From Blasia pusilla (lineage: Eukaryota), in contig CM114271.1 in the NCBI GenBank assembly GCA_050084515.1, positions 12,028,001-12,092,000 of the forward strand: a stretch of DNA of 64,000 bases, written 5' to 3'. The position numbers were made by a program, and so were the translations under genes. Position 1 is the first letter of the stretch; every line of letters begins with the position of its first letter. The notes below the pieces were generated by a model. The model was not told where the DNA came from and did not search any database. It saw only the letters and a list, made by a program, of their open reading frames with translations. Positions 3,001 through 35,700 of this stretch are shown in pieces.

Positions 3001-6000
3001 TTTCCTTAAAGAAAAGGGAGTGGAACTCATCACACTCATCAACAAAGCTCTTACAGAGTGCTCACCAACAGTGAACACGACGGAGGTCAGCAACACAGTG
3101 CATCAACGTTGCAGAAAAGTCCAACTGTTTGGAGGTAAACACATCAGTTCCACTTCAACATTCACTCAACGATGGTTTGACAAGGACTGCAAAATGGCCT
3201 TCAGAGAGGTGAATCAACGGTTTTGGGTAGATCCACAGTCTTCCGCCACTAGACTGTTATGGGACACTTACAAACATCTGGTTCGCAGGAAGAGCGCAAG
3301 CATATTGCCAACAAGATCATTGAGTTTGCAGAGCAAATGAGATCTCAATCTTCAAAATTCTGGAGAATATTCAGAAATAGACAGAACAACATTCCTCTCT
3401 GAGATCTACAGATCTGCCCACATATAGTAACCAAGTTTACTACTCAGACATTGCTGCTCCCACTGACCCTTGGTGGACTGGGATCCAAGATTTACCAGAC
3501 CTCTTTAAAAGAAAAACAGGAGTAAACAAATACTGACTTTGATTACAGAGCTAATTTGTTTCTCCAAGCTCCAAGAAGTTACAGCAGATTATAGATACAT
3601 GGAATAGCTTCACAGACGTCAAATAGGAAAGGAAACTCTGTACTTACAAAAACATGAGAGAGATCTGATTGATCTACTACTCACAAACTTCCTCCCTATA
3701 GGAAGAAGAGACTCTCTACACTATTGATGCCTTTTCAAGCAGCACACTATCTCCTCCAGCAGCAGGTCCTCCAAAACATCAACTCCTTCTATCACAATAG
3801 GTCAGCCACCCAAGCTGAGGGGCAGCAATACTGAAGTTCGCAGGTCCAGGAGCTGGGAATAGTAGAGAAGAGAATGAGAGTGCTCTGGTAAGCCTCTTGC
3901 TCTTATAGGATAGCCCCTGGCTATCTTAAACCCTAAAAGTCCTTAACTAAGGCTAAAGGAGGCTATTATGAAACCCTAAAGGTTTTTAACTAAGACTAAA
4001 AAAGCTATTGCGAAAACCTAAAGGTCTAGTTAATAAACCTAAAAATAGAATTTTACCTATAGATAGAAAAAGTTAACTTTTCATAGTAAAAAACAGATTT
4101 TTTCGCTCCTGATCTTACAGTTGCAATTTCAACACTCCCACTCAACGTGAGTTCAGGTGTATTCCAATTAACTCCATGCACCTTAGGTGTTTAACCTTGG
4201 TGAGAGATTTTGTGAACACGTCAGCTGCCATGTCCTCTGTTGCACAGTGTTCTAATTCAATTTCCACTCCAACCTTTTCCCGTATAAAGTGATGTTGTAT
4301 ATCAATGTGCTTTGTCCTCGCATGGTGTATCGGATTCTTGGTTAGATCAATACTGCCCCGATTATCAGCATACACTTTTGTAGGTCTTGCTTGATGGCAT
4401 CCAAAACCATCAAGGAGGCGTCTAAGCCATATTGCCTCCTTGGCAGCATGTGTTAGGGCCATGTATTCTGCTTCACATGTGGAAAGTGCTACGGTGGATT
4501 GTCTCTTGCTGCTCCAACTAATAGCTCCTCCACACAGCAAGTAGCAATATGCAGAAGTAGATTGTCTATTGTCTAGATCTCCTGCCCAATCAGCGTCACT
4601 GTAACCAATTAGATCTACTTCTGCCTCTTTGATATATGTGAGGCAAAAGTCGTGAGTGCCTTTCAGGTATCTCATCACACGCTTGACAGCTTGCCAATGT
4701 TGCAAGCCAGGGTTGTGCATGAACCTGCTCAAAACTCCCACTGTGTATGCAAGGTCTGGCCTTGTGGCAACCATTGCATACATAATGCAGCCCACTGCAT
4801 TCTGATATGGTATGTTAGCCATATCATTCATCTCCAATTCAGTTTGAGGACACATTTCCTTGGTAAGCTTGATTCCTACCTCCATGGGTGTCCCTACTGG
4901 ATTACAATCACCCATAGAAAAACGATTGATGACATTCTTCACATATTTGGTTTGGCTCATCTTGATCCAACCAACATCTCTATTTCTAGTGATTTGTATT
5001 CGAGTAAATAATTTACTTCTCCTAGATCAACCATTTCAAAAGCTTCACTCAGTCCACGCTTCAGCCTGTGCATAGTTTTCAGGTCTTCACAGAGGAGTAA
5101 CAAATCATCTACATACAGTGCTATGTGAACCACAATATTCAACATGTGATAAACACTAGGATCTGCCCTATTCTTGTGAAAACCCAACTTCTGAAAATAA
5201 CCGTCAATTTTCTCATACCAGAGTCTTGACGCTTGCTTGAGTCCATATAAGGCTTTCTTCAGCAACCATACCTTGTCTCCATCCTTGAAACCTTCTGGTT
5301 GTTGCATGTAAATCTCCTCATGCAATTCTCCATGGAGGAAGGCGGTTTTACATCCATTTGATGTATCTCCCAATTATGCTTTGCCGCTAATGCTAGCAAG
5401 CTTCTTATGGAAGTAAATTTTGCTACAGGAGCAAAAGTTTCTGCATAGTCAAGTCCTTCAATCTGACTGTAGCCTTTAGCAACTAGTCGAGCTTTATACT
5501 TGACCACCTCATTCTTAGGTCCTCTTTTCACTTTGAAGACCCACTTGCAACCGATTGCCTTCCTCATGGGGGGCAAATTCACCAACTCAAAAGTCTGATT
5601 GCTTTGGAGAGATCCCATCTCTTCATGTACCGCTTGCTCCCACTGGATGGCATCATCTCTAGTGAGAGCTTCTTCAAGACTTGGCGGTTCATCAGCCTCC
5701 AACATTCCTGATGTACAACCTGCATTATCAAGGGCTTGGTAACACACTTCAGCCAGATGCGATTCCTCTGTGAATCTTTCTTCTTGCTGGTCAGTCTCAC
5801 CTTTTCCAAGACTTATCCCAAGTCGAATTGGAATTTTTGGATGTCCTTGTTGATTTTCGAACTGGAGGTTGTTGCTCTGTGCCTGTAAGATAACTATCGG
5901 TACTCTCTAATGGTACTTCTGATATTTCTACATCAGGCTTTCTCCTTACGTAAAATCTGGTTGGAGATAATCTCCTTGGAGATTTATCAACCTCATCATC

Positions 6001-9000
6001 ATTTTCTTCAACCTTGATATCTTTAAAGAATGTCAACTCCTTTTCAAAACTGACTTCTGCAGTGCTAGTAATGCTGCTACCAAGATCTTTCTCATTGAAA
6101 TAGACATCTCTACTTCTGATTGCTTTCTTAGTGCTTGGATTGAAGAGTCTGTACCCTTTACATCCAGGTTCATACCCTAAGAATATGCATTTCTCCGATT
6201 TGAGTCTAGCTTTGTTCTTTTCTCCTTTGGAATCAAAGCATAAGCACAACACCAAAACTTTCAGGTGAGAGAGATCTGGTTTCTTACCACTCCATGCTTC
6301 CTCTGGTGTCAAGTTGTCCAATGCTGTTGAAGGACTCAAATTCTTCAAGTAGTTGGCAGTAGTTAGGGCTTCTCCCAAAATTCTCGACCAAGGTTTGCTG
6401 TGGAGAGCATGGACCTGGTTCTTTCAACCAATGTCCTATTCAATCTTTCAGCTGCTCCATTCTGCTCTGGACTGCTCCTTGCAGTAACTTGACTCTTGAT
6501 TCCCTTTTGAGATAAGAAATCTTTGAACTGTTTGTTGATGTATTCTCCACCTCCATCAGTTCTAAGCACTTTCACTTTCAGGCCAAGCTCATTCTCAACC
6601 TCATTGACAAAGTGCTGAAATCTGTCCAAGACTTCATCCTTTGTCTTCATCAAGTAGACAAACGTCCTTCTTGACTTGTCATCAGTGAAAGAAACAAAGT
6701 ATTTTGCACCTCCGTGAGATGCTACTTTCATCGGTCCACACACATCAGAGTGGATGAGCTCAAGCTTTTCTCCTACTCTAGTTTTGGACTTCTTAGGTGT
6801 AGAAGTTCTACTCTGTTTCCCTTCTCTATACAACCTTCACAAAAGAATTCTGAACTATCAGGTTGTAAATGGAATCCAACAACCATCTTCTGGAGTTTCC
6901 TCATATTCTGAATTCCCAGATGTGCTAGTCGCCTATGCCAAATGTCTAAAGAATTTTCTTCAGATCCAATGTTGGCGATTCTTCATCAACATGTGTTGTA
7001 TGAAGTTTATAAAGCTGATTGTTCACAATCGAAGCTTTCCCGATTTCAGTTGTATCATGATCAAAAATAATGCAATGATCATCTGTAAACAACACTTTGA
7101 AACCCTCACTTGCTAAGACTTTCACAGAGATCAGATTTTTCCTATCTCAGGAATATAAAGGACATTTTTGAGAAGTAATTCTCTACAACCTTTCAGATTT
7201 AGATGAACTTCACCTTTGGAAGAAGTTTCCAGCTTGTGATTGCTTGCCACTGTTACATTGCGTGTAGAGATTTTCTGAATGTTGCTAAAACAACTTCTCT
7301 TACCGCACATGTGAGATGTTGCTCCACTATCAATGTACCAAGCATCCCCAGAACTTGATTCAAATGGTACATCACCTTCCAAAGTCATGAATAGTTGATC
7401 ATCATCGCTATCTTCAACCACATGAGCTTTCTCGGAAGTGTTGAACTTTCCCAAGCTTTTCTTCTTGCCTTTCAGGTCTCTCACCTTTTTCCAACAGACC
7501 TCTTCTGTATGGTTCAGCATGTTGCAATATTTGCACTTGAGCTTCTTCATGCCCTTTTCATTGTACCCTCTCTTACCAACCTTGGCAGCAAGAGCGATCT
7601 CATCAGATACATTGTTCCTACCAGCATGCTTCGATTCTTCATTGATGAGTTGTCCGTTGACATACTCCCAGGTAAGTTTCTTTTACTCTTGAGCTTCCAG
7701 CACAGTACTCACAGTCTCAAAACTCTTAGAGAGAGTGCTGAGAAGTAGACCTACTTGGAAAAAATCGTCTACTTTGAGACCTCCTTCGATGAGAGTAGAA
7801 ATCATCCCTTTCACCCTCGCCACATGAGTAGCAACAGGCTCAGATTCGTCCTGGCGCAAGTTCACAAGGTTCCGAAGGACACTAAAGATGTGTCCTACAG
7901 ATTCAGTTTGTAAGCCTTCTTTCACAGTCTCCCACATGGCATGAGCATTTGGTTTGTCACGGGCCATCTCTATAGCAGAGTCTCCCATGTTCATAACCAA
8001 TGCAGCCATTGCCCTATTGTTGGATTTGATCCATCCTGCATCCAACAGTTGCATTGCTGTTGGTGCACATTGGACGACTTCCCAACAATCCTTATGACAA
8101 CAGAGGATCTTCATTTCAAAAGACCACTTTCTCCAATTAGTTGCGTCTAATTTCTTGCTAACCCAGTGATCCATATCACTTCGTGGGCCCATAACCTAAA
8201 AGAAAAACAGGAGTAAACAAATACTGACTTTGATTACAGAGCTAATTTGTTTCTCCAAGCTCCAAGAAGTTACAGCAGATTATAGATACATGGAATAGCT
8301 TCACAGGCGTCAAATAGGAAAGGAAACTCTGTACTTACAAAAACATGAGAGAGATCTGATTGATCTACTACTCACAAACTTCCTCCCTATAGGAAGAAGA
8401 GACTCTCTACACTATTGATGCCTTTTCAAGCAGCACACTATCTCCTCCAGCAGCAGGTCCTCCAAAACATCAACTCCTTCTATCACAATAGGTCAGCCAC
8501 CCAAGCTGAGGGGCAGCAATACTGAAGTTCGCAGGTCCAGGAGCTGGGAATAGTAGAGAAGAGAATGAGAGTGCTCTGGTAAGCCTCTTGCTCTTATAGG
8601 ATAGCCCCTGGCTATCTTAAACCCTAAAAGTCCTTAACTAAGGCTAAAGGAGGCTATTATGAAACCCTAAAGGTTTTTAACTAAGACTAAAAAAGCTATT
8701 GCGAAAACCTAAAGGTCTAGTTAATAAACCTAAAAATAGAATTTTACCTATAGATAGAAAAAGTTAACTTTTCATAGTAAAAAACAGATTTTTTCGCTCC
8801 TGATCTTACAGTTGCAATTTCAACACTCTTCACAATCAAAGACATCACAGCAGGCCTCAGAAGGCTCCATAACAAACCAGAGGATGACGTAGGTGCAAGG
8901 GTCCAGCTCCTTTGGAGGCTATTGCTCCAGCTCTTGCAAGAATGTTCAATCCCCACGTCATACTACTGGTCGAGTTTGGTGAGGTACCAATGGAGATTTC

Positions 9001-21297: not shown

Positions 21298-22867
21298 TTC
21301 CGGACTCGCTTAAGAAAGCTTCCGTCTCTTAGGTTGCCACCAAACCGAGCAACCAAAATACAATCCCTCAGTAAATTACAGCGCCTGCGTCGGTTTCAAC
21401 CATTTCTATTCCCTCGTCATATCTCGTCTTGCAATCCGTCTCCATGGCTGTCCTCGACACCACCGCACTCTGCGTGTGATTAAACCCTTCCCAACCTTAT
21501 TACCACGGGCAACCTATCGTTGCCCCTGATATGACATGAAACTTGAAAAAATTGGGTACGGAGGAACGGTACGCACCTCCAGCCGAGACCCCGGTTTATA
21601 GTTCGTAGACCCGAAACGTCACTAAATCTATTTCATTCATGCTTTCTCAATATGAGGAAGAAGAATTTTAGCCCCATCTTCTTTCTTTTAATAGTATAGA
21701 TTTTGAATTATCCCTTTGAAATTTAGATTGATTTGAATGCATATAAAGAAGAGGGATTTGAGAGGAGAATTAATTGTTAATATTAAGAATATAAAAAAAG
21801 TTTGAGGAACTAATGTATAAGGAAGATTAATGACGTTACACATGAATTCAAAAAAAACTCTTGATGTCCATAGTTGTGAATTTTTTTCTTGTTGCCTAGT
21901 TATCATGTGTCAAACAGAGACGTGTTTGCAAATCAAAAAGGCACTCTCCAAAAGAATTTAGACTTGTAAGATACTCATACGATGAACGGAAAATAAAAAA
22001 GTGTTTGAAGGGATGATTAATGCTCCACACAAATTCAAACTCTTTTCTTCCTTCCCATAACACGTGAAACATTTTTTTTCTTGCGAAATTACCACGTGGT
22101 AATAGGGCCTTAAAAAATAGGTGTCAATAAAAAATTTTAATAATGTTTAAATTTTCAATTTTTATTTAATTATAAATTTAAATATAATTTCCATTTTTTA
22201 AAACATTAAAAGAGTAAGAAATTTTCACCTTTCAATAATACCCATCTCCCCGAAATAATTTCACTCCTTTGTAAAGGCTCAAACAATAACTATTCTTCCC
22301 CTTCCATTCTTCCCACCAAAATAACATTCACTAACTAAAATCTTAGCTAATTTTAATTAACGAAATTATTTTCCTTTTGCCATTCAAATTCATTTCCCTG
22401 TCCCAAAATATCACATGTGAATTAATAATATTTCAAAAAATGATCATGCTATTTATTTCAATTTTTAAATATGATTTATATTTTCTAAAATCTTAGAAGA
22501 GAAATAACATTTTGCTATTCTTAGTAATTATAATCTTCCATTCAAATTTAAATGATATCCCAATAAACTAAGTAATTTTATCTTTCCATAAAATTTAAAC
22601 AAAATCTACTCCTCCATTAAATTTTTATTTCCTTTTTCCATCAAATATGAATTGAGATAAATTTTCCAAATTTTTGGTTCTTTATCATATTAATTTTATA
22701 TTTTCTTAATTTTTATAATCACATGTTATAATATTAAATTATTTATTTATTTATTTATATATATTCCACTCAAATCCTTATTCGTTTCCTTTGTTCTATT
22801 TCTACCCATCTAATGGGGCTCAAGCAACAAAATTCAAGGATGTTGCCCCGCTATCTTGTAATATTAT

Positions 22868-23223
22868 TGTCATGACCATACGGATTATGTCGTAGAGTAT
22901 GGTGTGCTGGTAGAGGCCATTCCTTATGTAGGACCGTAGTGGCTTGGTAGAGATGCGGTTCCATACATAGGGTTGGGGTTACTCACTTGGGGTGACTTTC
23001 CCCAAGAGGGCCCGCTCTTAGGTTGGAGGATATAAGGTGGCTTGCCCTCAAAGAACATCAATTCTTTAGGTTGAGCCTTTGTTGGGAGTTAGCCTTGGTA
23101 GTGAGTAGAGTTCTTGGCTATGGTGTTTCCAAGCCGACCTAGATTCTCCCATCGTGGAGTGGGTTTGGCTCGATTGTATGTGATTGTAAACGTGTTTTAT
23201 GAAGAGGTCTTTCACGGATTTCA
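22868..23223 (+). repeat. Terminal repeat A1 (356 bp; TG...CA; contains TATA box)
   Basis: Direct repeat of 31861-32225 with a few small indels. Confidence 0.95.
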
Positions 23224-23235
23224 CTCAAAGAACTG
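23224..23235 (+). promoter_or_regulatory. Self-priming PBS CTCAAAGAACTG
   Basis: Immediately follows A1. Exact reverse complement of CAGTTCTTTGAG (32052-32063), which lies ~30 nt downstream of TATAA (32023) in A2. No TGG tRNA-type start. Confidence 0.75.
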
Positions 23236-26200
23236 GAGTAGATCGATGGTAGCTTCGATTGTAGATCAGTAGGATCTGGTTAGGGCTGATTGTGTACTCA
23301 GCCGTGGATGTTCGTGGCTTGTGGCCTATGTTGGAGGTGTGAATCTGGTGCGCGGTTGGTTGGGAAAGAAGTGCCTTGCTGAGAGCTTTCCAACGTGCTG
23401 TAGATCATCGGATTTCGTTGAGGGAGTTGGAAGTTATCAAGCATTGAAGATTCTGGTCGTGTTCGACAGTTTTCTGATGTGGAGAGCTTGGAGTGCGGAA
23501 GCTCTGTTGAAGTTCATCCAGATCGGGTGAGAGGTTCCTATTGCTACTTGTATTGTGATCTCATGTGAAGCTATGTGCTCGAGTGCGTGGAGCGTTGCGG
23601 ATTTCTGCGTGCATGAAACTTGGCGGAAGCGCTGTCGGATTTGCGGTTCTAGAGGTGTATGGACAGCAAGTTTGTCTGATTTTTAGCTCGGAGCAAGCAA
23701 GTAGAGGCGGAGTAAGGAGAGGTGGAGTAAGGAGCAAGGAGCAAGCAAGGAGAGGCGGAGTAAGGAGCAAGGAGCAAGCTTGCTTGCTTGGGCGTTAGGC
23801 AATTTTTGCAGGATTTGGGATTTGAGTTTTGCATAACTGGTCACCCATCTTTGGGCTATTCTGCCTGGAGGACGCTTGACTGCCGAGTTCTTAACTATGC
23901 CAGTGTACAGACTGTTGTAGCTCATTTGGTGATGTTCGGAGATGTGTTAGGCGCTTTATGCATCTCAGGTTTTTGGTTGATGTACCTCTAGCGCATAGTA
24001 CGGTGTAGCCTCTCCATGCAGGTGATATTTTCAGGTGTTGCGCGTTCGACTAGCACATCATGGACCCGCGGCGGAGTAGCTATTGCGTTAGAATTGTGTG
24101 GTGGATTTTGTGGATTCAGAGGGCACCACATTTGGTGGATTGTGTTACCTTGATTTCCATTTGCGATTGGAGGGTTGTCGTTGGATTTCCTGTGTTTGGA
24201 TCCCCTCCATCGTGCTTCTTGCTTGCGCGCCCATTGTTATGGTTGACGCTGATTTCTAGAGTAGTGTTACTCCTATATGCTACTGGTAGTGAGGCTGGAG
24301 GGATGACGAGTAGATTGTGGGAGACTTCTTGTGGTGATGACAAGTTAGGTTGCCTACACCCATAGCTAGTAGAGCTAGAATAGTATAGCGACATCGACAT
24401 CACTTGGTAATTTGGTGGTGGTGCGGCATCGGCGTTGGTCACTGAGTGTCAGGTGGTCTGGTTGGGGACCGTGGTGCGGATGGTGGTGGTTTCACACGGA
24501 GTGGATTTAGGTATCGGCTACCTTTTCCACTTCCGACGGTTGATGAAGAGGAGGACGAGGGTGTTCCAAACACCAAGTCTTCTACGTTGTTATCGAGTGT
24601 TGCGGCTCCATTGATTTGGGACATGGACGGTGGATATGGGGCCATGAAGGGCCTGACGATACTCGGGTGCAAAGTGGGTACCATTGAGTTGGAGGACTTC
24701 ATGCAGGAGTTTGATACGTGGTGTGATATGCAGATGTTGAACGGCACGTTGTTTACACCCTTCTTGGCTTGGAAGGGTTGTTTCAAAGACTTGGAAGGAC
24801 CACCCATGGATGATTACCATGAGTTTAGGAAGGACCATGTTCTTTGAGATTGAGGCATGGAGACAATATTGGTCTCCACGCTATGTGTCTATCACCCATG
24901 GTGGTATTGGTAGTAGTGCTCCTACTATGCCCGGCCCGCCGAGTGGTACAGTACGAGCCGGAGTGGGGATACGGTGGAGGTACTAGTGGGGGTACTAGTG
25001 GAGGTACTAGTGCCCCACCATCGTTTAGCCCGGTTGAGAGTTCTTCAAGAGGTTGAAGAAGAACTATCAAGGAGTGAAGACGGAGAAGTTGAGGAATCTT
25101 CAAGACTTTGAGCGAAAAGACCGGTGAGAGTCTTAGTGAGGCATACACGTGTATCGACGCTTGATTTCGATTACCAGGGTGTGACCGAGGATCACCAATC
25201 GATTTTTGGTATGGGATCTTGGACAGAGATTTGCGCCGTAGGGCGTGATGCTACTCTTATGAGTGATGATTCACCCACATTGACCCATGTGTTTGCTCTA
25301 TCTCGAGAAGATTGAGCTTAACATGGTGAAGGAGAGAGTGGTGACATCCGCATTCGAAGAGGGAAACAACTACTACTTCGTGTTCACCGCCCACCTCACA
25401 TCTCGTAGTAGTGGTGGTGGTAGTAGTAGTGGGAGTCGTGGGGGTACACGCGACCTCGTCAAGTCCTAGAGGGACATTTGTGTAGAGACCATTGCCTTCA
25501 TTTGCTGCCCGCAAGCAAGGACGATCATGTTGGACATGTGGAGGTGATCATGTTAGGAAGTTTTGTCCCCAAGAGGATGGGGGAGAGACTTTGGAGGATG
25601 GGCCTCGTCGGCCCCAACTCAGTGTGATCATTGTGGGAGACTAGGTCATCCTCGAGAGCGTTGCTTTGATCTTCATCCGAGTTGAGATCAGGCCCCGGCC
25701 GTGGTGGAGTAGCTCGAGAGGCCGAGGTGGTAGAGGTGGTAGGGGTGGTAGAGGTGGACGGTGGTTGGAGAGCCTACGGTGGCTACCCCTACCACTACGA
25801 CAAGTCCGCCTATGGTCGCCGGGATTGAGCGATTGGAGAAGAAGTTGGCTACTATGGTGGTATCCAAAGATAGATCAGGTTCGGGAGCAGGGCTTCCACC
25901 TCTTATGGAGGGATGATCTCTCTTATATGGCGAGTGCAAAGATGGGTTGAGGCATCAGCTGCAGCGATTCTGAGAGGAGCCACTCGGCGTCGAGCCACGT
26001 GGTGCTCTTGTGGAGTTGGACCCCAGAGGGGTGAGGCCGGGAGGCGAGCTAGGCTTCCCAGTCATTCTTTTTGTCTGAGGTGCTTAGGACTCCATCCATG
26101 GTTCCTACGCGGCTTATTGAGCCGGCAGTGGGGATCGAGGCATCTACATCAGCGTGTAGTAGACACGGATGCAAAGATCTAGTGCAAGATGTGCGGATGG

Positions 26201-27278
26201 CAACCGGTGTTGGGATCCCCATTGTTTTCGCCACGGAGGCGATGGCTTTAGGAGTTGACTTAGCTCTGTATTTCATTCTTCTTGACCACATTGTGTGAAC
26301 GTGGGGTGTTTCTTTGCTACACGTGTTGAGGTGGATGAGGATGTTGCGGTGGAGCGACCCTCTATGTCGGGAGTAGCATTGAGTACTGTGCTACTTAGCG
26401 GCAAAGCGGCGGCGAAGATGGATGCATTACCGGCCCGGCCGACCATTGATCGTGAGAGGCTTACACCTGGTGTATGTATGTTGGACAACCGGAGTGGGAT
26501 CTTCCGATTGGTGAGTCCTACAGCAGGTGTATAGACCAGATAGAGTCTTGTTAGATTCTGGTGCCCAACCTTTGATGTTGGGAAAGGCGGCATGTATTGG
26601 TTTGGGTATTCGGAGGTCAGAGCTTGAGCCTTGCCCATTCCAGATTCAAACGTCACTTGGAGGAGCCAATGATATGTCTCAATTAATGACACGGGAGAAG
26701 TTTTCTATACAGTTGAGACCAGATCATGCGACTGATAGCTCCCGGTTGGGAGTATCTGCGGTAGTCACATCAACCGAGTCGTATGATGTACTAGTTGGAG
26801 GAGCGATTGTACCCGATGGGTTTTGAGATGGATTCGGGTCGAGACAGCGTCTTATAGACCAGGTTGGCAGTCCGGGGATGGACGTATGAGCCAAGTTCCT
26901 GTGAGATTTATTTATGGGGCTCGACCAGGAGGGTCTTCCCCAACATTGTTAGCATCTGTGGCTGGTTTTAGTGGAGTAGTCACTTGGCCAGGAGACTTTT
27001 TGGAGGGTAATGTTTCTGCTATGGATTCTCCTGCGTATGAGGAGGTAGAAGAGGTCCCTATTTTTGCAGCAGTGGCATCCTCATCGTTGGATGTGCCACT
27101 TTGGAGTTCAGGCGGTGCACTACGGCAGGAGGCTGATCGCCTAGTGCAAGAGGCTTGGTGTGAGGCTGTTATACCTCACAAGGAAGAGGAGGCCCCACGG
27201 CGGACTCCTACTTCTGCCCCAGTTGGGTTATCCCCTTTGGATACTACACCCATTGTATGGCAGTATCCGCCGGAGGGC

Positions 27279-28220
27279 ATTTGTGTGTTAGATCTCTTTG
27301 GTGGGATTAGCACTGGTTTGGCGGTAGTGTTGCAGGCCGGTATTCCTGTGCGGAGATACGTGTATGTGGAGCGAGATGAGACGGCCCAGAGAGTCTCATC
27401 CCGACATATTGGTCAGTTGATGCGGAGATATCCTGAGTTGTTTCCGCCATCAGCTATTCGTGGGTACCAGCATGCTTTACCATCACACATTGCATTGTTG
27501 GGGGCGCAGGACCTTGAGAGGGTTGGTCATGTGGATTTGGTGATTGCTGGATGGCCATGTCAGGGTCATACACGTGCTGGTCGTGGTGAGGGATTACATG
27601 ACCCTAGGTCTCGATTGTTTTGGGAGATGTTACGGGTGTTACGACATCTTCATGTTCATCAGGCACGTGCTCTAGCTTACATTCTGGAGAATGTTCCATT
27701 GTTGGGTGACACTCGGACCCGGATGATGGCGAGTGTTTATGAGGTGCGGTCTTGGATTGGACCAGCGGTGTTGTTGGATGCAGCGTGAGTTGGCTCGCGT
27801 GCACATCGTCCACGCTTGTGGTGGACAAACTTGTTGCCTAGGGAGGTTCTACGTCGAGCATATGATGCAGTGCAGCGGGATCCTCGCTTACAAAGTGGAT
27901 AGTATCTTGAATCTTGGCGACTTTCTCAAGTGGTGAGGGTTATTGATCGGTCACCCAAGGCGGCAGTGAACCGTGTGGGCCACCTAGGATGGCACTACCC
28001 ACATTTGTGAGTTTTCCCGCGTCACATGCCTACAGGAAGGTGGTCCGGGGCTTGTATGGGATTCTCATGTGCGGCATTGGGGTTGGTGGAGCCTAACGCC
28101 GATGAGAGAGAGCGTGCGATGGGATTTACTCTTGGCGTAAATGGGTTGCTTCTATTTTTGAGGCTTCACGACGTCATGTGTTGGGTCAAGGCCATGGACC
28201 TGAATTGTTTGACTTGGATT
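27279..28220 (+). CDS. DNMT3-like C5-cytosine DNA methyltransferase domain inside the gypsy pol region (one in-frame TGA, later frameshifts)
   Basis: Motif I LDLFGGI, II YVERD, IV GWPCQG (catalytic Cys at ~27558), VI LENV, VIII HRPRLWWTNL (read through the TGA at 27786-27788), IX ERERAMGF, X GQAMDLN-like. Confidence 0.93.
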
Positions 28221-31200
28221 TTGAGTCTTGGTATGGCGAGCAAAGCGTCGACTTCGGACTATGTCGTGGGTCTTCCACCCCTTGTAATGAGCTCGATGGC
28301 TACAGGGACGGTAGAGGCATCGGTAAAGCAGGAGAGTAGTATTTTGCATCCTTGGAGTAAATGGGATGTAATGGTTGGGCATGTGGAGTTGGTTGCTCAT
28401 GCTGGTGGAGGAGTTATTTGCTCAGATGATGGTGTAGCTAAGGATGTACCATCTTGTGAGGGGGTTGCGTAGCAGCCAATGGCATCGTCCTCTCCCTCTA
28501 GTGTGCCAGTGGAGGAGACTTGGGAGCCATTACTTGGGCCCAAGCTTACGGGAGGTGAGAAACGACGCTTGACACAGTTCTTACATGCTTATAGGAGTTG
28601 TTTTGCCTTTAGCATGAAGGAGTTGGGTTCTCTGGTTGGACCCGGTATACGGATTGATTTGGCTAGTGATACGCCAATCTTCCGTCGTCCCTATCGATAT
28701 AGTGATATGGAGAGGGACTTGATTCAGAGTAGGATGTTGGACCTTTTGGAGGCTGGATTAGTGGAGTTGTCGATGGAGAGTATGCATCGCCCACAGTCAT
28801 GCTCGCTAAAAAGGATATGCATGGCAACTACACGGATAGGCGGATGTGTGGAGATTACCGCCCTATCAATCGGCAAACCAAGGCCGATAGGTATGCCATG
28901 CCTACACGTGAGGAGATCTTTGATGTGGTGGGGACAGGCAAAGATTTTCAGTATTTTTGGATCTTGGCAGGATACCATCAATTGCCGATTCGGGAGAGTG
29001 ACAAGGCCAAGACAAGATTTTGGGGTGTCAACTCATGGCAAGGATTGTTTGTACCAAAGTGGAAATTCTTACCCTTTGGGTTGAAGAATGCACTGCCGAG
29101 TTTCAAAGAGTGATGGACAGGATCCTAGCAGGGGTTGGATTTTGTTCGGTGTTACATTGATGATATCTTGGTGTTCAAGAACACGGTGGAGGAGCATCGA
29201 TACATTTGCAGATGGTGTTTGAGCGGTTGAAAGCTCATGGTCTACGTTGCATCCAGGAAAGTGTAAGTTCTTCCATGAGGATGTTGAGTACTTGGGTCAT
29301 GTGATCTATCCAGGTGGTTTGGGAGTTCAGCAAGCAAAGGTGGAGGCTATTGCACTTATTCGCGTCCGATAGATGTGAGTAGAGTTCGAGCATTCATGGG
29401 ATTGGCGAACTACTATCGGAGGTATATGAAAGGATTTAGTGCTATGGCAAAGCCTTTGAACCAATTGCTGAAATCAGATCAAGAGTGGCACTGGGAGATG
29501 ATCAAGAGAGAGCTTTTGTGGAGCTTAAGGCCCGGTGGTGGCGGCGCCTATCTTGAGGAGACCTATCGAGGGCGCCCATTTCGATTACACATCGATTGGA
29601 GTAGGTTGGGACTTGGAGCGGTGTTGACACAACATGATGATGGGCACATGGAGTTTGTGGTGGCCTATGCAAGTCGTTCGAATAATGCAATGAGTCGCAC
29701 TATAGTTCATATGAGGGAGAGTGCTTGGCAAGAGTGTGGGTGGCACACTTTAGGTGTTACTTGTTTGGCACACGTTTACCCTTGTTACTAATCACCACCG
29801 CTCAAGTGGTTGATGGAGTCGGACAAGCTTACAGGAAGCTTGCACGGTGGGCTCTTATCTTACAGAGTATGACTTCCGGGTGGTACATAGACTGGAGTTG
29901 CCAACCTTGATCTTGATGGGTTGAGTAGGAACCCATGTACTAGCCAAGAGGATACAACTGGGGCTAGATGGCATGGCGAGGTTGATGAGGAGATGGTGCC
30001 AGGTTGGCATGCATCCGCCTTTTTATGTTGGTTAGGGGTGGACTCTAGTATGGAGGACCACATGATATCTTACTCTAGTCAGAGGGTAGATGGCCAGCCT
30101 TCAGATCCTAAGGTTGGAGATGGTGGTACGGATCAGCGTGATATTCATGACGATGCGTTGGTGTTGGAGTTCCTACGGACCAGTAGGGTGCCAGGCGTAG
30201 TGAGTGCCAAGGAGCGAGACCGTGTTCTTCAACGTGCTAAGAGGTATCGATTGGAGGGAACACATATTCTCCGCATGTGGGAGGATGGTAGAGTACGAGT
30301 AGTGCCACATTTGGCTCAGAGAGAGCGCATTGTGCGACATGCCCATGAGGAGTTGGGTCATTTTGGGATAAAGCGTACGTATAGCTTACTCCTTGGCCAG
30401 TATTGGTGGCGTGGCATGCATACTCAGGTGCAGCAGTTGGTGTCACATTGTATGGTTTGTGACCGGGTGAGGGCATCATTTAATGCCCCTACACCATAAT
30501 TACACCCCTTGCCTATTATGGGGTTGGGTTACCGTTGGAGTGTGGACTTTGCGGGACCGTTACCATTGACAGTACGACATCATCGATATGTGTTGGTGAT
30601 GGTGGAGCACTTCTCCAAGTGGATTGAGTTGGTGGCATTACCGGACAAGGCAAGTGAGGGAACGGCGTATGCGTTTCTGGATAGAGTGCTTAGTCATTTT
30701 GGTGCACCGCTGAAGTCTTGACCGACCGAGTCTGAGTTTTTCAGGGTGAGTTTCGAGGTCTTGTGTGATAAGGCGTTGATTAATCATCGGACCACGTCTC
30801 GAGATCATCCAGAGGCGGATGGTTTGGTGAGCGTGTGGTTCGGGACGGTGAAGAGGGCATTGCGCAAGTATGGCCTCTGAAGGGCATCTTGGAGACTCGG
30901 ATATTCGTTGCCATGGTTAGCCATGGGGTATAGGTTCGATCGCCAAGCATCCTTGGCTTCCTTCTCACCTTATTTTCTTTTATACGGCCGAGATCCGGAC
31001 TTGCAAAGCAGCAATTGTCGGGAGTCTAGTGAGGTGGTGAACCTTGATGACCCGAGAGATGTGGATGAGGGTGTGTTCTCGCGGGCGGAGCTCTTTCGGA
31101 GAGTTATGCCAATAGCCTTTGAGAATCTTGCCATTGCTCAACACGGGGATACGTTGCGGTATGCAACCATTCGGGTGGAGGTTATCGACCATCGATTCGT

Positions 31201-31437
31201 AGGTTCCATGTGGGGACTATGTCTATTTGCAGCAGATTGCCCCGACAACGCGTTGGATGTGACGGCAGCCGCACTATTTTACGAAAAGTGCGTGAGGTGT
31301 TAACTCGGAGTTCTCATGTTGGAGGGTCGTGATGGAGTTGTTTGGAAGGACCATGTGCGTAATTGTGCGCCATGTCATCTTCCAAATGTGGATGGTACTG
31401 TTGACCCAAGCTTAGCCATGATACGTGCTAGCTTGAG

Positions 31438-31579
31438 GTGCATGTTGTGTGGGTCTGTTGGTAACGCAACCCGTATGTTGGTGTGTGATCGGTGTTCTAG
31501 GGGTTGGCACATGATGTGTTTGACTCCACGTTTGGATCTTGTTCCTACTGGAAGGTGGGTTTGTCCTCGATGTACTTAG
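31438..31579 (+). CDS. PHD finger at the integrase C-terminus
   Basis: CMLC...MLVCDRCSRGWHMMCLTP...VPTGRWVCPRC* = C4HC3 with the conserved Trp. Confidence 0.92.
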
Positions 31580-31754
31580 GAGAGGTAGATGACTTGATCT
31601 TTGCATGATATGGATAACAGATGTGCGACTAACGATGGGGCAACCTAGCACCCGGCCTTCTGATTTGGGCACCCAAGAAGGTGTATAGCATGTAGTAGAT
31701 GTATAGGGCTACCTGGGAGTTAGAGGGACCTAACCGCCAGTTAGGGGGGCGAGT

Positions 31755-32331
31755 TGTGGTACACTTGCGTTTGTGGACACTCTCGTCTATGTTATGTATG
31801 TATGTGCGTATGGTATGTCAGCGATGTATGTTGTATAACGATGTAGATTCGCACGACAGCTGTCATGACCATACGGATTATGTCGTAGAGTATGGTGTGC
31901 TGGTAGAGGCCATTCCTTATGTAGGACCGTAGTGGCTTGGTAGAGATGCGGTTCCATACATAGGGTTGGGGTTACTCACTTGGGGTGACTTTCCCAGAGG
32001 GGCCCGCTCTTAGGTTGGAGGATATAAGGTGGCTTGCCCTCAAAGAATAGTCAGTTCTTTGAGTTGAGCCATTGCGTTGGGAGTTAGCCTTGGTAGTGAG
32101 TAGAGCTCTTGGCTATGGTGTTTCTCGCAAGCTTCGACCTAGATTCTCCCATCGTGGAGTGGGTTTGGCTCGATTGTATGTGATTGTAAACGTGTTTTAT
32201 GACAGTAGGTCTTTCACGGATTTCAGTTGTGGTACACTTGCGTTTGTGGATACTCTCGTCTATGTTATGTATGTATGTGCGTATGGTATGTCAACGATGT
32301 ATGTTGTATGACGATGTGGATTCGCACGACA
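31755..32331 (+). repeat. Right-end repeat block B1 (31755-31858) - gc - A2 (31861-32225) - gt - B2 (32228-32331); PPT AGGGGGGCGAG(T) at 31743-31754
   Basis: B1 and B2 are 104-bp near-identical direct repeats, each TG...CA. B is absent from the left end. Confidence 0.93.
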
Positions 32332-32706
32332 TTATGCATATATGATCGCCAATTATTATATAGATAAGATGCCCATGCAATGCGTGACAAATAAAAAAAG
32401 TGTTTGAAGAGTAAGCGTATAGTTCGTGAAGGAAAGGGATAAATGATGCCGCACATAAATTCAACTTTTTTTCTTGTTGCTTGTAACATGTGAAACATTT
32501 TCTTGTTGTCCAGTTGCCACATGTCAAGCAGTGAGGTGTTTGCAAATCCAGAAGGCACTCTCCCATAATAATATAGATACTCGTGTAAAAGACACATTAG
32601 ATAATGAAAGAAAACAACTAGTGTGTGTAGAGGTTGTAATTTAAAAATCTTTAAAATTTATTTAATAATTATAGAAAATAATTTAAATTCATAGACTTGT
32701 TTAATA

Positions 32707-35700
32707 CCTATATAATTAAAAGAGGATGGGGTTTGAAGAAACCTTCCTTGACACGTATATTTTATGTTCTCCTCTGACATGGACACATGTTATATTTAAC
32801 AAAAGCAATCTGCGGCCTCTGTGACTGATGGAGAAGAAAGTAATTAACATATATGTTTATAGGACACGTGGATAGTCTAGATGGCCGAGAAAAAAAAACA
32901 ACGAGAATTTGTAGAGGCCGTAAAAACTGAATGAATTAGTCATAGATTTAACTATGTCTTTCACCCTTAATATTATGTTTGAGAATGAGATTAGAAGAAA
33001 CATGTGTCCTTTTAAAGTCTCATGACAACCTTTTATTCTTAATACATCTCCTTTAAGAATACTTAAATAAAGGGGAAATTGTCCCCCATCCACAGCACGG
33101 GCGACGGTTTAATATATAACATAAAAGTAATAATATAAATTTTTGAATATTGCTATTGGATTTCTCTGCACGAAAGCTCAAATTCATCCCTTCCCCAAAC
33201 TCCGCGCGAGAGGTTGACAAAATGCCGTCTAGTTCAAGTACGTGGCCAAAGTCCACCGTCCATCCTCAAACGTCCACTACTACTTAGAGTTACTGCTGGT
33301 CCGCCACGGAACACGTGCATGCACAAAGTTACAAACAAACCGCCCTAGTAACCAATATGCTGCCCCTTTTTAGGGTTTTGAGTTTTATAACCGAGTTTGG
33401 AACCCACTTATAGTCGGGAGTAACACAACATGAATCAGATTCTGATTCGGCAGTAGGGATAGGGAGTAAGTAATACACAACGAGATCTTGAGTAATACGG
33501 CGCTGGAGAACACGAATCGAATCGGGATACGGCTAAAAAAGGTTAGGAATAACATTGTGATACTAGAATTTTGTATCGTATTAAAGAGATAATTAATACA
33601 AGCACTGAAAGGTCTCTTGGAAAAGTCCAAGAGACGAAACATGAAATAGAGTTGTGCGTTTCATGCGTTAGGAAAGTGCAACGTTCTCTCCTAATGCCAT
33701 TCGATCTTGCCCTGGAAGTGGATCCATGTCCGGGGTTGCTTCGATAAATATGCCACCGCTTGAGGAACCTCAACTATCGGAATTCCATATTGTTGAACTA
33801 CCCTCGAGACTGCATGTTGGGAAGTTCCAGCAACAGAGGGATTTTGAAATAAAACATTCACTAAATTTGTAGAAGGTACTTCAAGTCGAATTTGGGAGCA
33901 GTCTGGTGTCTCCGAGTACTTGGGCAGGGTTATTTTTTCATCCAAATCAATCACAAGATTCTTTCCTAAGTGCTGACGCTTGACTTTCCTAAAGTCAATA
34001 TACTTATCAGGTCTCCAAGGGTCTCGTTCAAACTGCTCTACAACCATCTCTATTGGACCTCTCGAAACACGCCCACGAATGTCCCCACCAATGTGGACGT
34101 TTTTCTCGATAGGAGTTCCAACTACGCACCGATTGAAGGCTTCCACATACAATTTCTCATCCCTAGATCTCACAGCGGCTCTAACATAGAGCTAGTGAAT
34201 CGAAGGGCGCTTTCCCTTGGTTACGCCTTTGGTGACCAAGGGAAAGCGCCCTTGCCTGATCTTGTTGGCTTGCCTCAATGAGAGATATTTTTTAACATGT
34301 TTGTGATGACCTCCAAGAGGAATGGACACTCTCGGCTCCACTTGTGTTGGGGCAGAGGGCATTTTCGTGAATGTTGAGTCCCTACAGGAGAAAACTTGTC
34401 AATTGATGGAAGGAACGCCTAAGTGTTCAATGCTTGCAACTCGTCGGAATCCGACGGGTTGCAAGAAGCATTGAGTTGAAAACAACCAACCCATCAATAA
34501 GATGTATGAATAGAACTTGGACACGAGGGGTTGTCTACAACAACCAACTCGGGAGTGGTTCCGATGCGTTGCAGCATGTAATTTGCAAGACAAGCAGCAA
34601 ACCGTCAGATTTCGACGAGTTGCAAGTAGAATTTTTTTGAAAAAACCCGCTTGCAATCCGTCGGCAAATGACTTTTCTCTGCCAATGTTCTTGCAACTTG
34701 TTGGAATCCGACGGGTTGCAAGATGAAATTTTCTCACAAAAAGTAACTTGCAACCATTCGGATTGCAAGATGAACGTTTTTCGGAAAAAAATTGCAACCC
34801 GTAGGAATTCGACGGGTTGCAAGAACTTTTTCCGCAAAAAAGTAACTTGCAACCCGTCAGATTCCAATGGGTTGCAAGATGAAATTTTTTTCACAAATAA
34901 GTTACTTGCAACCCGTCGGATTCCGACGAGTTGCAAGATGAACTTTTTTCACAAAAAAGTAGCTCACGACCCGTTGGATTTGGACACTCCGTAATGTGAT
35001 GCAACCTGTCGGTTTTGACGGGTTTCTTTAACTAGCTATTTTGCAACTCGTACGATTCCAATGGGTTGCAAACTCACACTTGGACCACATACTTAGAAAA
35101 AATGGAGAAAACTCACCTACCAGATAAAGTTTCCCCATTGCCTCATACGGATGGTCCACCAACTGAGCCATAAACATAACTCTTTGTATTTCCCCTCAAT
35201 CACGTGCTTTCTCTACCACATATAAAGCTCTTTCTGGCACTCCATGGCTTTTTTCAAGGTTTTGCTATCCTTCAAGTTGAAGTAGAGCTACATGCTCTGT
35301 TCTCTTAGTCTCCTTGATGCAGGATTTTTTGTAGCGAGTCACAGACTGTTGCTAATGGAAAGCATCCGGCCTTTCCATTTTGGTTGAACTCCCCCCATAA
35401 CACTTCACGCGCGACAATCCATCATCACGGTTGGGCATTGTCCGCCGTGAAGCCATATATTTCACGAGGAGGTCTTTTTTTTTTCCTTCACCACCTCCAG
35501 TAAGAGTAACCAACACATCTTCAAGCTGCCAACATCTTCCGCTTTCACCTCACAGACAAATATGGTTTTGAGACCCTTCTCCACATGGTCGTGAACGTGT
35601 GCACCCATGGTCAACCATCCATTTAACACCTTGTAGCAAATATCAAAGCTAACCCAGCTCCCAAATAGATCTTCTCCCTCCCTCATTCTGTCAATAAGAT

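Follow-up and report, generated by a model that had tools for sequence, protein, structure and literature searches.

A decayed Ty3/gypsy-type Gypsy-DNMT3 element with a DNMT3-type methyltransferase domain in Blasia pusilla

The DNA analysed here, called the window throughout, is a stretch of 64,000 nucleotides from contig CM114271.1 of the Blasia pusilla assembly GCA_050084515.1 (positions 12,028,001 to 12,092,000, forward strand). Positions 22868-32331 of the window are occupied, on the + strand, by a Ty3/gypsy-type element of 9,464 bp, which starts with TGTCATG, ends with CACGACA and contains a C5 cytosine methyltransferase (DNMT) domain. With regard to identity and anatomy, we are confident that this is an old, non-functional insertion of a high-copy Gypsy-DNMT3 element with split repeats and a 4-bp target-site duplication (TSD). 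The initial annotation had proposed a C5 methyltransferase between the protease (PR) and reverse transcriptase (RT) of a gypsy element, and the ordered motifs, the Pfam match, the DNMT3A-type matches and the flanking domains all bear this out. The domain and its motifs, the latter all in the frame of base 27201, are as follows.

27279-28220, + strand: DNMT3-type C5 cytosine methyltransferase domain, pseudogenised (from motifs, PF00145 and structure matches)
27291-27317, + strand: motif I, DLFGGISTG
27549-27569, + strand: motif IV, GWPCQGH, with PCQ
27687-27698, + strand: motif VI, ENVP
27795-27833, + strand: motif VIII, SRAHRPRLWWTNL
28098-28127, + strand: motif IX, ADERERAMGF
28191-28205, + strand: part of motif X, AMDLN

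On the evidence of its sequence, 27279-28220 is a real DNMT3-type methyltransferase domain rather than a chance resemblance, because the motifs are ordered, PF00145 is matched, the structure matches are of DNMT3 type and the motif order (I, IV, VI, VIII, IX, X) is linear and unpermuted, unlike the permuted arrangement of DRM. The PF00145 match scores 36.5-37.3 bits against a cut-off of 22. Among solved structures the top sequence matches are DNMT3A catalytic domains (E 7.5e-12), followed by DNMT3B and DNMT3C, and plant DRM2 is a far weaker match (E about 1e-3). The bacterial enzymes M.HhaI and HaeIII trail together with the tRNA enzyme DNMT2, which is among the weakest (E 0.17-0.22), and no DNMT1, MET1 or CMT chain was matched at E<=1 among the solved structures searched. 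The window element was compared with relatives, designated P for proteins and L for metagenome loci, and an AlphaFold2 model was made of the linker, DNMT and tail of one of these (L044:3388-5082, 37-row alignment). The model has a mean predicted local distance difference test score (pLDDT) of 78.4 and a predicted template modelling score of 0.69. Its ten best fold matches in the PDB are all DNMT3A, DNMT3B or DNMT3C, with template modelling scores of 0.76-0.83 on the target and E about 1e-16, at about 20-23% identity to the solved DNMT3 enzymes across the fold alignment, and beyond the DNMT no known domain is apparent in its linker or tail. The domain had also been read in a single frame. This holds for motifs I to VIII and for IX, but part of the interval between VIII and IX and the start of motif X, including the bases just before it, fall in other frames.

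The element as a whole has the order gag with a CCHC knuckle, PR, DNMT, a TAG stop, RT, RNase H (RNH), DDE integrase (IN) and PHD finger; apart from the DNMT, inserted after PR, gag to IN follow the order of Ty3/gypsy elements. Its remaining coding features are these.

24623-26520, + strand: gag region, split over several frames (tblastn of the Marchantia ORF1 proteins P0002 and P0003 begins at 24623)
25623-25664, + strand: CCHC zinc knuckle CDHCGRLGHPRERC in gag
26524-26823, + strand: aspartic protease, LLDSGAQ at 26548-26568, 75% identical to P0002 residues 628-728
26838-27278, + strand: conserved linker between PR and DNMT, alignable to all relatives
28221-28469, + strand: C-terminal tail of open reading frame 1 (ORF1), aligning with the tails of P0002-P0005 and of the loci
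28470-28478, + strand: conserved ORF1 stop in a leaky-type context, TAG CAG CCA, the stop codon at 28470-28472
28479-29800, + strand: RT and RNase H, heavily broken (RVT_1 stretch 28961-29212; RNase H 29567-29698)
30314-30475, + strand: integrase H2C2 zinc-binding domain (Integrase_H2C2, E 7.5e-17)
30530-30799, + strand: integrase DDE core (rve, 26 bits, under the cut-off of 32.6)
31439-31573, + strand: PHD finger at the C-terminal end of the integrase ORF (PF00628, E 4.3e-11)

Pfam matches to Asp_protease_2 in relatives are weak and exceed the cut-off in one of three. Neither the linker nor its equivalents in relatives gave a Pfam match. It is about 145 aa long, with nearly invariant W, RPGW, GDGR, PV.F, LLE and D..P.W, and in the L044 model a high-confidence helix of the linker (about residues 81-110, pLDDT about 90) just precedes the DNMT fold. 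A DIRS-like retrotransposon with a tyrosine recombinase was considered and is ruled out by the H2C2/rve integrase and the 4-bp TSD; Pfam scans of the three forward frames listed H2C2 and rve and no tyrosine recombinase (Phage_integrase).

The position of the DNMT relative to the ORF1 stop is of particular interest. A stop stands at all 47 homologous sites compared (46 loci and the window), as TAG in 36 and TAA in 11, and each is followed by CAA or CAG and then by YYN. In 36 of 49 junction records (48 loci and the window) the RT lies in the frame of the DNMT, with exactly one stop between them in 25; the remaining 13 are decayed copies with shifted frames. L044 is intact and has ORF1 (1369 aa), the stop and ORF2 (1047 aa) in one frame, and independent gene models from three sources, Marchantia and Calypogeia among them, end at the TAG codon of the window. 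The DNMT is thus the C-terminal domain of ORF1 (gag-PR-DNMT), separated by a conserved stop from RT-RNH-IN-PHD. The original description of the domain as embedded in pol is correct as to its place between PR and RT, and it needs changing in that the DNMT closes ORF1 ahead of the leaky-type stop. UAG_CAR_YYA is the type I readthrough signal of tobamoviruses, and CARYYA also acts on UAA and UGA, according to the part of PMC3542737 used here. The TAG CAG CCA of the window is alike, and all 47 family sites have the form stop-CAR-YY; unlike the viral signal, only 7 of the 47 end in A. In active relatives it is likely that abundant Gag-PR-DNMT is made together with a rarer readthrough fusion to RT-RNH-IN-PHD.

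The non-coding parts of the element are arranged in an unusual way, as the following features indicate.

22864-22867, no strand: left 4-bp TSD, TTAT, the same bases as at 32332-32335
22868-23223, + strand: repeat A1, 356 bp, TGTCATGACC...GGATTTCA, 94.8% identical to A2
23224-23233, + strand: candidate primer-binding site CTCAAAGAAC, directly after A1, conserved in four of four aligned copies
31741-31753, + strand: polypurine-like tract TTAGGGGGGCGAG, adjoining B1 upstream, conserved in the window, L060, L043 and L019
31752-31858, + strand: repeat B1 (...TTCGCACGACA), 96.2% identical to B2
31861-32225, + strand: repeat A2
32225-32331, + strand: repeat B2, the right element end (...CACGACA), where the homology of four independent insertions ends
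32332-32335, no strand: right TSD, TTAT, read directly

Instead of two identical terminal long terminal repeats (LTRs), the window element and its relatives have the layout A1-coding-B1-A2-B2. A1 and A2 differ by 8 mismatches and 11 gap positions in 366 columns. The complete A1...B1-A2-B2 is present in L060, L043 and L053/L055 (one insertion in two records), and the B-A-B part in L019 and L056. L050 shows a B1/B2 pair, and L014, whose record breaks off within A2, the B1-A2 junction. When four 3' ends are aligned, their homology ends precisely at ...CACGACA, beyond which the flanks are different, and blastn of the window to L043, L060, L014, L056 and L034 reaches 32331. Perfect 4-bp TSDs flank the elements of the window (TTAT), L060 (AATC) and L043 (AAGG), and in L053/L055 three of four bases agree (ATAC vs ATAT). 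The B1|A2 junction reads CACGACA-GC/AT-TGTCATG, with GC in the window, and the two element ends are near-perfect inverted repeats. The contigs of L044 and L042 do not span their elements from end to end, so that their repeats are unreadable. Since this copy is heavily mutated, it might be argued that decay or assembly produced the A...B-A-B layout and the ORF1 stop by accident, and that the element was an ordinary two-LTR gypsy with a single gag-pol ORF. We regard this as very improbable, as independent insertions, each in different flanking DNA, share the layout, junctions and end points, the stop occupies the same codon at the 47 homologous sites and in the intact element, and the published legends, in the part seen, give the same layout for KnitGypsy-Dnmt3, the element of this kind in Klebsormidium nitens.

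No TGG-type tRNA primer-binding site adjoins A1. The CTCAAAGAAC that follows A1 differs by one base in each of L060 and L014. Its complement, GTTCTTTGAG, lies in repeat A about 150 nt upstream, and from its sequence the CTCAAAGAAC may serve as the primer-binding site. Repeat A itself holds a 10-bp hairpin, CTCAAAGAAC-loop-GTTCTTTGAG (23046-23071). A consensus of four relatives has it without mismatch, and the window has a mutated version; the hairpin together with the CTCAAAGAAC after A1 also occurs in L060, L043 and L014. In Tf1-type elements reverse transcription is self-primed, and the pairing of CTCAAAGAAC with GTTCTTTGAG recalls this. The second base of TTAGGGGGGCGAG, T, is C in L043 and L019. 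In formal terms, cutting a two-LTR circle, with B-A as the LTR, at the other CA-NN-TG junction would give this same layout; that it originated in this way is speculation. A derivation of A-coding-B-A-B from standard two-jump reverse transcription did not succeed: with the purine tract upstream of B1, the scheme gives B-A ... B-A. Permuted repeats combined with target duplications pose a puzzle on how an integrase-bearing element replicates.

Analysis of related sequences was informative as to the extent of the family. A word-indexed search of longer proteins, in which 8000 candidates were scored with a threshold of E<=1e-3, gave 52 matches. The named ones comprise 16 from Marchantia polymorpha and one each from Calypogeia fissa, Sphagnum fallax, Mesostigma viride and Closterium sp.; host names rest here and below on the minority of matched rows that carry an organism name, and no K. 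nitens sequence is among the named matches, most matched rows being nameless. An exhaustive phmmer search covering 1.84 billion cluster representatives returned 3288 proteins at E<=1e-3, 620 at <=1e-10 and 91 at <=1e-30. The 235 in-frame residues of the window are 74% identical to the Marchantia and Calypogeia proteins and 70% to moss-like loci. A single scan of metagenome contigs, queried with an alignment of 15 ORF1 proteins, yielded 68 loci. The longest match the window element over about 7.9 kb, as far as base 32331, with about 77% of nucleotides identical, and many share their ORF1 tail almost verbatim with P0031 of Sphagnum fallax. In one DNA run 238,591 contig pieces lie on the element at >=90% identity, and therefore the family is highly repeated in the organism of that run. 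Contigs of two runs presumed to be of RNA cover the DNMT region at 90-99% identity; since these runs may be of DNA, nothing on expression is drawn from them. It had been suggested that presence in a land plant would extend the known range of such elements, and the Marchantia, Calypogeia and Sphagnum proteins (16, 1 and 1) agree with this.

Mapping of domains in 200 proteins revealed two orders, T1 (PR-DNMT, with or without a following RT-RNH-IN) and T2 (RT-RNH-DNMT-IN-PHD), the window element being of the T1 type. The PHD finger is found in relatives of both. In a tree of transposable element (TE)-borne DNMT domains (IQ-TREE quick, LG+G4, 142 rows, unrooted), all 68 T2 rows and 20 fragments fall on one branch (Shimodaira-Hasegawa-like approximate likelihood ratio test 99) and all 41 T1 rows lie opposite, so that one change explains the labels. 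An unrooted RT-RNH tree of 67 rows, namely all 7 T1 and 60 of 131 T2 picked at random, has the same T1/T2 split with support 100. The named T2 hosts are chlorophytes (Chromochloris, Monoraphidium, Haematococcus and Chlamydomonas eustigma), and the named T1 hosts are streptophytes (Marchantia, Calypogeia, Sphagnum, Closterium and Mesostigma). T2 elements, which have one ORF (P0038, P0046, P0223, P0243, P0258, P0299 and others; loci L061/L062), are very diverse in metagenomes.

These comparisons bear on whether this copy alone carries the DNMT, as a one-off capture or as a nested piece of a host DNMT3 gene. The one point in favour is that the copy is decayed and sits in repeat-rich DNA. Against it, the order gag-PR-DNMT is shared by 41 proteins and 68 loci, which come from several hosts, the DNMT and RT-RNH trees agree on the T1/T2 split, and there are neither intron-like gaps nor second insertion boundaries around the domain. 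A one-off capture is hence hardly credible, and the absence of the domain from sister copies, which would have pointed to it, is not what we see: the domain is present in the 68 loci and the 41 PR-DNMT proteins, both sets having been collected with DNMT queries.

Further evidence comes from the pattern of selection. Motifs I (LF.G..TGL), IV (AGWPCQGH), ENV, VIII (GS.AH..R..WTNL) and IX (EP.ADERERAMGF) are invariant in all 15 ORF1 proteins, although overall identity between sublineages is only 32-37%. The frame of the DNMT is uninterrupted in L010, L011, L014, L044 and L046. Ratios of nonsynonymous to synonymous substitution (dN/dS) were obtained for pairs of loci as follows.

DNMT (314 codons), L044 vs L046: 0.114 (dN 0.031, dS 0.269)
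DNMT, L044 vs L042: 0.113
DNMT, L011 or L014 vs L010: 0.17-0.18
Protease, L044 vs L042: 0.14
ORF2, L044 vs L042: 0.06
ORF1 tail, L044 vs L046 and L042: 0.39-0.62

The ORF1 tail is thus faster-evolving than the DNMT domain. By these ratios the DNMT of the family is under purifying selection. The neutral decay with loss of catalytic motifs that had been named as a possible outcome is not what is seen at family level, where the ratio is about 0.11 and the motifs are invariant.

Elements of this kind have been described before in a charophyte alga and in dinoflagellates, and the present one resembles them in several respects. KnitGypsy-Dnmt3 of the charophyte K. nitens has A-coding-B-A-B repeats (de Mendoza et al. 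2018, PMC5890265). As described in the part of that paper used here, it shares with the window element an unpermuted DNMT3-type domain in a polyprotein of gypsy composition, the DIRS-like repeats and a low ratio of substitution for the DNMT (Ka/Ks <0.2). The likeness lies in the features described, and the hosts here are liverworts and a moss rather than a charophyte alga. The leaky-type stop, the PHD finger and the 4-bp TSD of the window element are unmentioned for KnitGypsy-Dnmt3 in that part of PMC5890265. SymbioDIRS-Dnmt3 of Symbiodinium, whose legend in the same source reads 'A-coding region-B-A-B', is similar in its DNMT3-type domain and repeats and in having two alternative domain orders within one group. 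It carries a tyrosine recombinase, in contrast to the DDE integrase, H2C2 finger and TSDs of the window element. The earlier suggestion that this is a retrotransposon-borne DNMT of the kind described in 2018 is accordingly upheld by the DNMT3 type of the domain and by the same A-coding-B-A-B repeats. The DNMT3A, DNMT3B and DNMT3C of animal hosts and the DNMT3 of bryophytes have the same fold and motif order, but the TE-borne DNMT lacks PWWP and ADD, lies in a TE polyprotein and is multi-copy and intronless. A PHD accessory domain is held in common with Gypsy-7a_cRei of Chlamydomonas, a PHD-finger gypsy; unlike the window element, the PHD-finger gypsy elements of green algae have no DNMT listed in the part of PMC9940879 used here.

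As to the range of hosts, the species table of the 2018 survey includes Physcomitrella and Selaginella and not Marchantia or Sphagnum (PMC5890265, as far as its text is represented here), and later papers of the same group place Gypsy-DNMT3 'in streptophytes' (PMC12344493 and a 2026 preprint, likewise represented in part). In the text portions of these three sources liverworts, mosses and the chlorophyte variant are not named. Our literature search, which did not extend to the supplementary PDFs of the 2018 paper or to the supplements of PMC12344493, found no description of these elements in bryophytes or of the chlorophyte variant. The land-plant occurrence extends a concept that was already published (PMC5890265), and three features may be described here for the first time: the second domain order, the leaky-type stop, and a TSD accompanying A-B-A-B repeats.

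With regard to origin, the domain may have been relocated once within an ancient lineage, or similar DNMT3s may have been captured twice. Only tentatively do we propose a more complete scenario, which is rather doubtful as a whole: one ancient green-plant lineage of PHD-integrase gypsy elements would have carried a DNMT3 since about the chlorophyte/streptophyte split, with the domain relocated once, so that it follows the protease in streptophytes and land plants and stands between RNase H and integrase in chlorophytes. In land plants the DNMT, placed before a leaky stop like that of viruses, would be made in the same amounts as Gag, and the element would be inserted as a circularly permuted unit (A-coding-B-A-B, 4-bp TSD), as from a two-LTR circle opened at a CA-NN-TG junction. 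If true, the DDE integrase would act on the junction and not on free LTR ends.

It is possible to suggest how the enzyme might be used by active relatives. ORF1 would give abundant Gag-PR-DNMT, and occasional readthrough of TAG/TAA-CAR-YYN would give Gag-PR-DNMT-RT-RH-IN-PHD. The protease would then free a DNMT3-like enzyme made at the stoichiometry of Gag and not of Pol, as the conserved leaky-type stop predicts, and the freed enzyme would methylate cytosines of the element's own cDNA or of the new insertion, while the PHD finger of the integrase probably reads histone tails during targeting. The gain from such methylation could be camouflage as methylated host DNA, or self-limitation. That the enzyme acts on the cDNA or insertion of its element, as the initial annotation had also proposed, is a role to which we would give somewhat less than an even chance.

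Several points weigh against the overall reading of the element. Activity has been shown for no Gypsy-DNMT3 enzyme, the only published assay of one being that in yeast in which the KnitGypsy-Dnmt3 domain gave no detectable methylation, a result called 'inconclusive' by its authors in the section seen. The close pair L011 and L014 has a DNMT dN/dS of 0.86 (dS 0.06), such neutrality being expected for dead sister copies after insertion, and several dS values exceed 1, which makes the ratios from those pairs rough. The locus search, being based on the DNMT, is blind to sister lineages without one, and the trees, besides being unrooted, hold no host DNMT3, DRM, MET1 or CMT. A complete CARYYA is matched at 7 of the 47 stop sites and the other 40 end in C or T; re-initiation at an ATG two codons past the stop may be an alternative to readthrough. 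The window copy itself is decayed. By frame-tolerant alignment to P0004 of Calypogeia fissa, its closest intact relative, its DNMT is identical in 348 of 539 aligned codons and has in-frame stops at 27786-27788 and 27900-27902 and about five frame changes (near 27985, 28038, 28079, 28144 and 28190). Its ORF2, read against the intact ORF2 of L044, is identical in 621 of 1024 codons with 21 frame changes and 3 stops (about 24 breaks); 17 of the frame changes fall between 28774 and 29893, and the stops are at 30497, 30719 and 30878. Owing to these stops and frame changes in DNMT and ORF2 the window copy yields no protein and is no source of enzyme; the element is an old, dead insertion.

The assay also bears on another view of the domain, namely that it has been kept for a different purpose, such as acting on host DNA in trans, methylating RNA, or a non-catalytic role in DNA binding or in the structure of the particle. 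Absence of DNA methylation in the sole published Gypsy-DNMT3 assay is in its favour, and manufacture of the DNMT with Gag, and not with RT and IN, would also fit a particle-associated role. Against this, the catalytic Cys of PCQ, ENV and the residues of motifs VIII and IX are invariant, which argues for catalysis as far as conservation can indicate it, and both sequence and fold are nearest to DNMT3A/B/C, with DNMT2 among the weakest matches (E 0.17-0.22). Moreover, SymbioDIRS-Dnmt3 domains carried out de novo CG methylation in yeast, as stated in the part of the published account used here. We therefore consider a different purpose unlikely, though well within consideration, and prefer methylation of the element's own cDNA or insertion. 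A TE that bears an enzyme normally used to silence TEs is in any case a paradox. Its earlier hosts, dinoflagellates and one charophyte, are difficult for genetics; the hosts now include liverworts and mosses, among them the transformable Marchantia polymorpha, and it follows that the gain a TE derives from its own DNMT becomes directly testable.

The observed/expected ratio of CpG is 0.71 in the element and 0.40-0.61 in the flanks, and is uninformative on past methylation. The coding strand is G-rich and C-poor (G 0.318 and C 0.191 in the window at 24400-31600; G 0.288 and C 0.169 in L043), likewise in L014, and the asymmetry is weaker in the intact L044 (G 0.271, C 0.217).

Elsewhere in the window, a Ty1/copia element lies on the minus strand at 4142-8195, with copia-type gag, Pol_BBD, SH3_retrovirus and RVT_2 on consecutive ORFs; Pfam searches of 20 other long ORFs of the window gave matches in 4, all belonging to one Ty1/copia element, so that no host gene was recognised among them. 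Just to the right of the Gypsy-DNMT3 element, at 34416-34957, there are five copies of a unit of ~70 nt with the palindromic core TTGCAACCCGTCGGATTCCGACGGGTTGCAAG, at a spacing of 59-161 nt. It seems that the element lies inside or next to another repeat, which fits contigs that join its two flanks as well as the likeness of stretches on either side (71-75 nt within 21875-22078 and 32434-32563, 76-81% alike). Such contigs, few in number and from DNA, join about 22809-22820 to 32331-32337, which is a weak hint for the right boundary, and they could be empty sites of the repeated flank.

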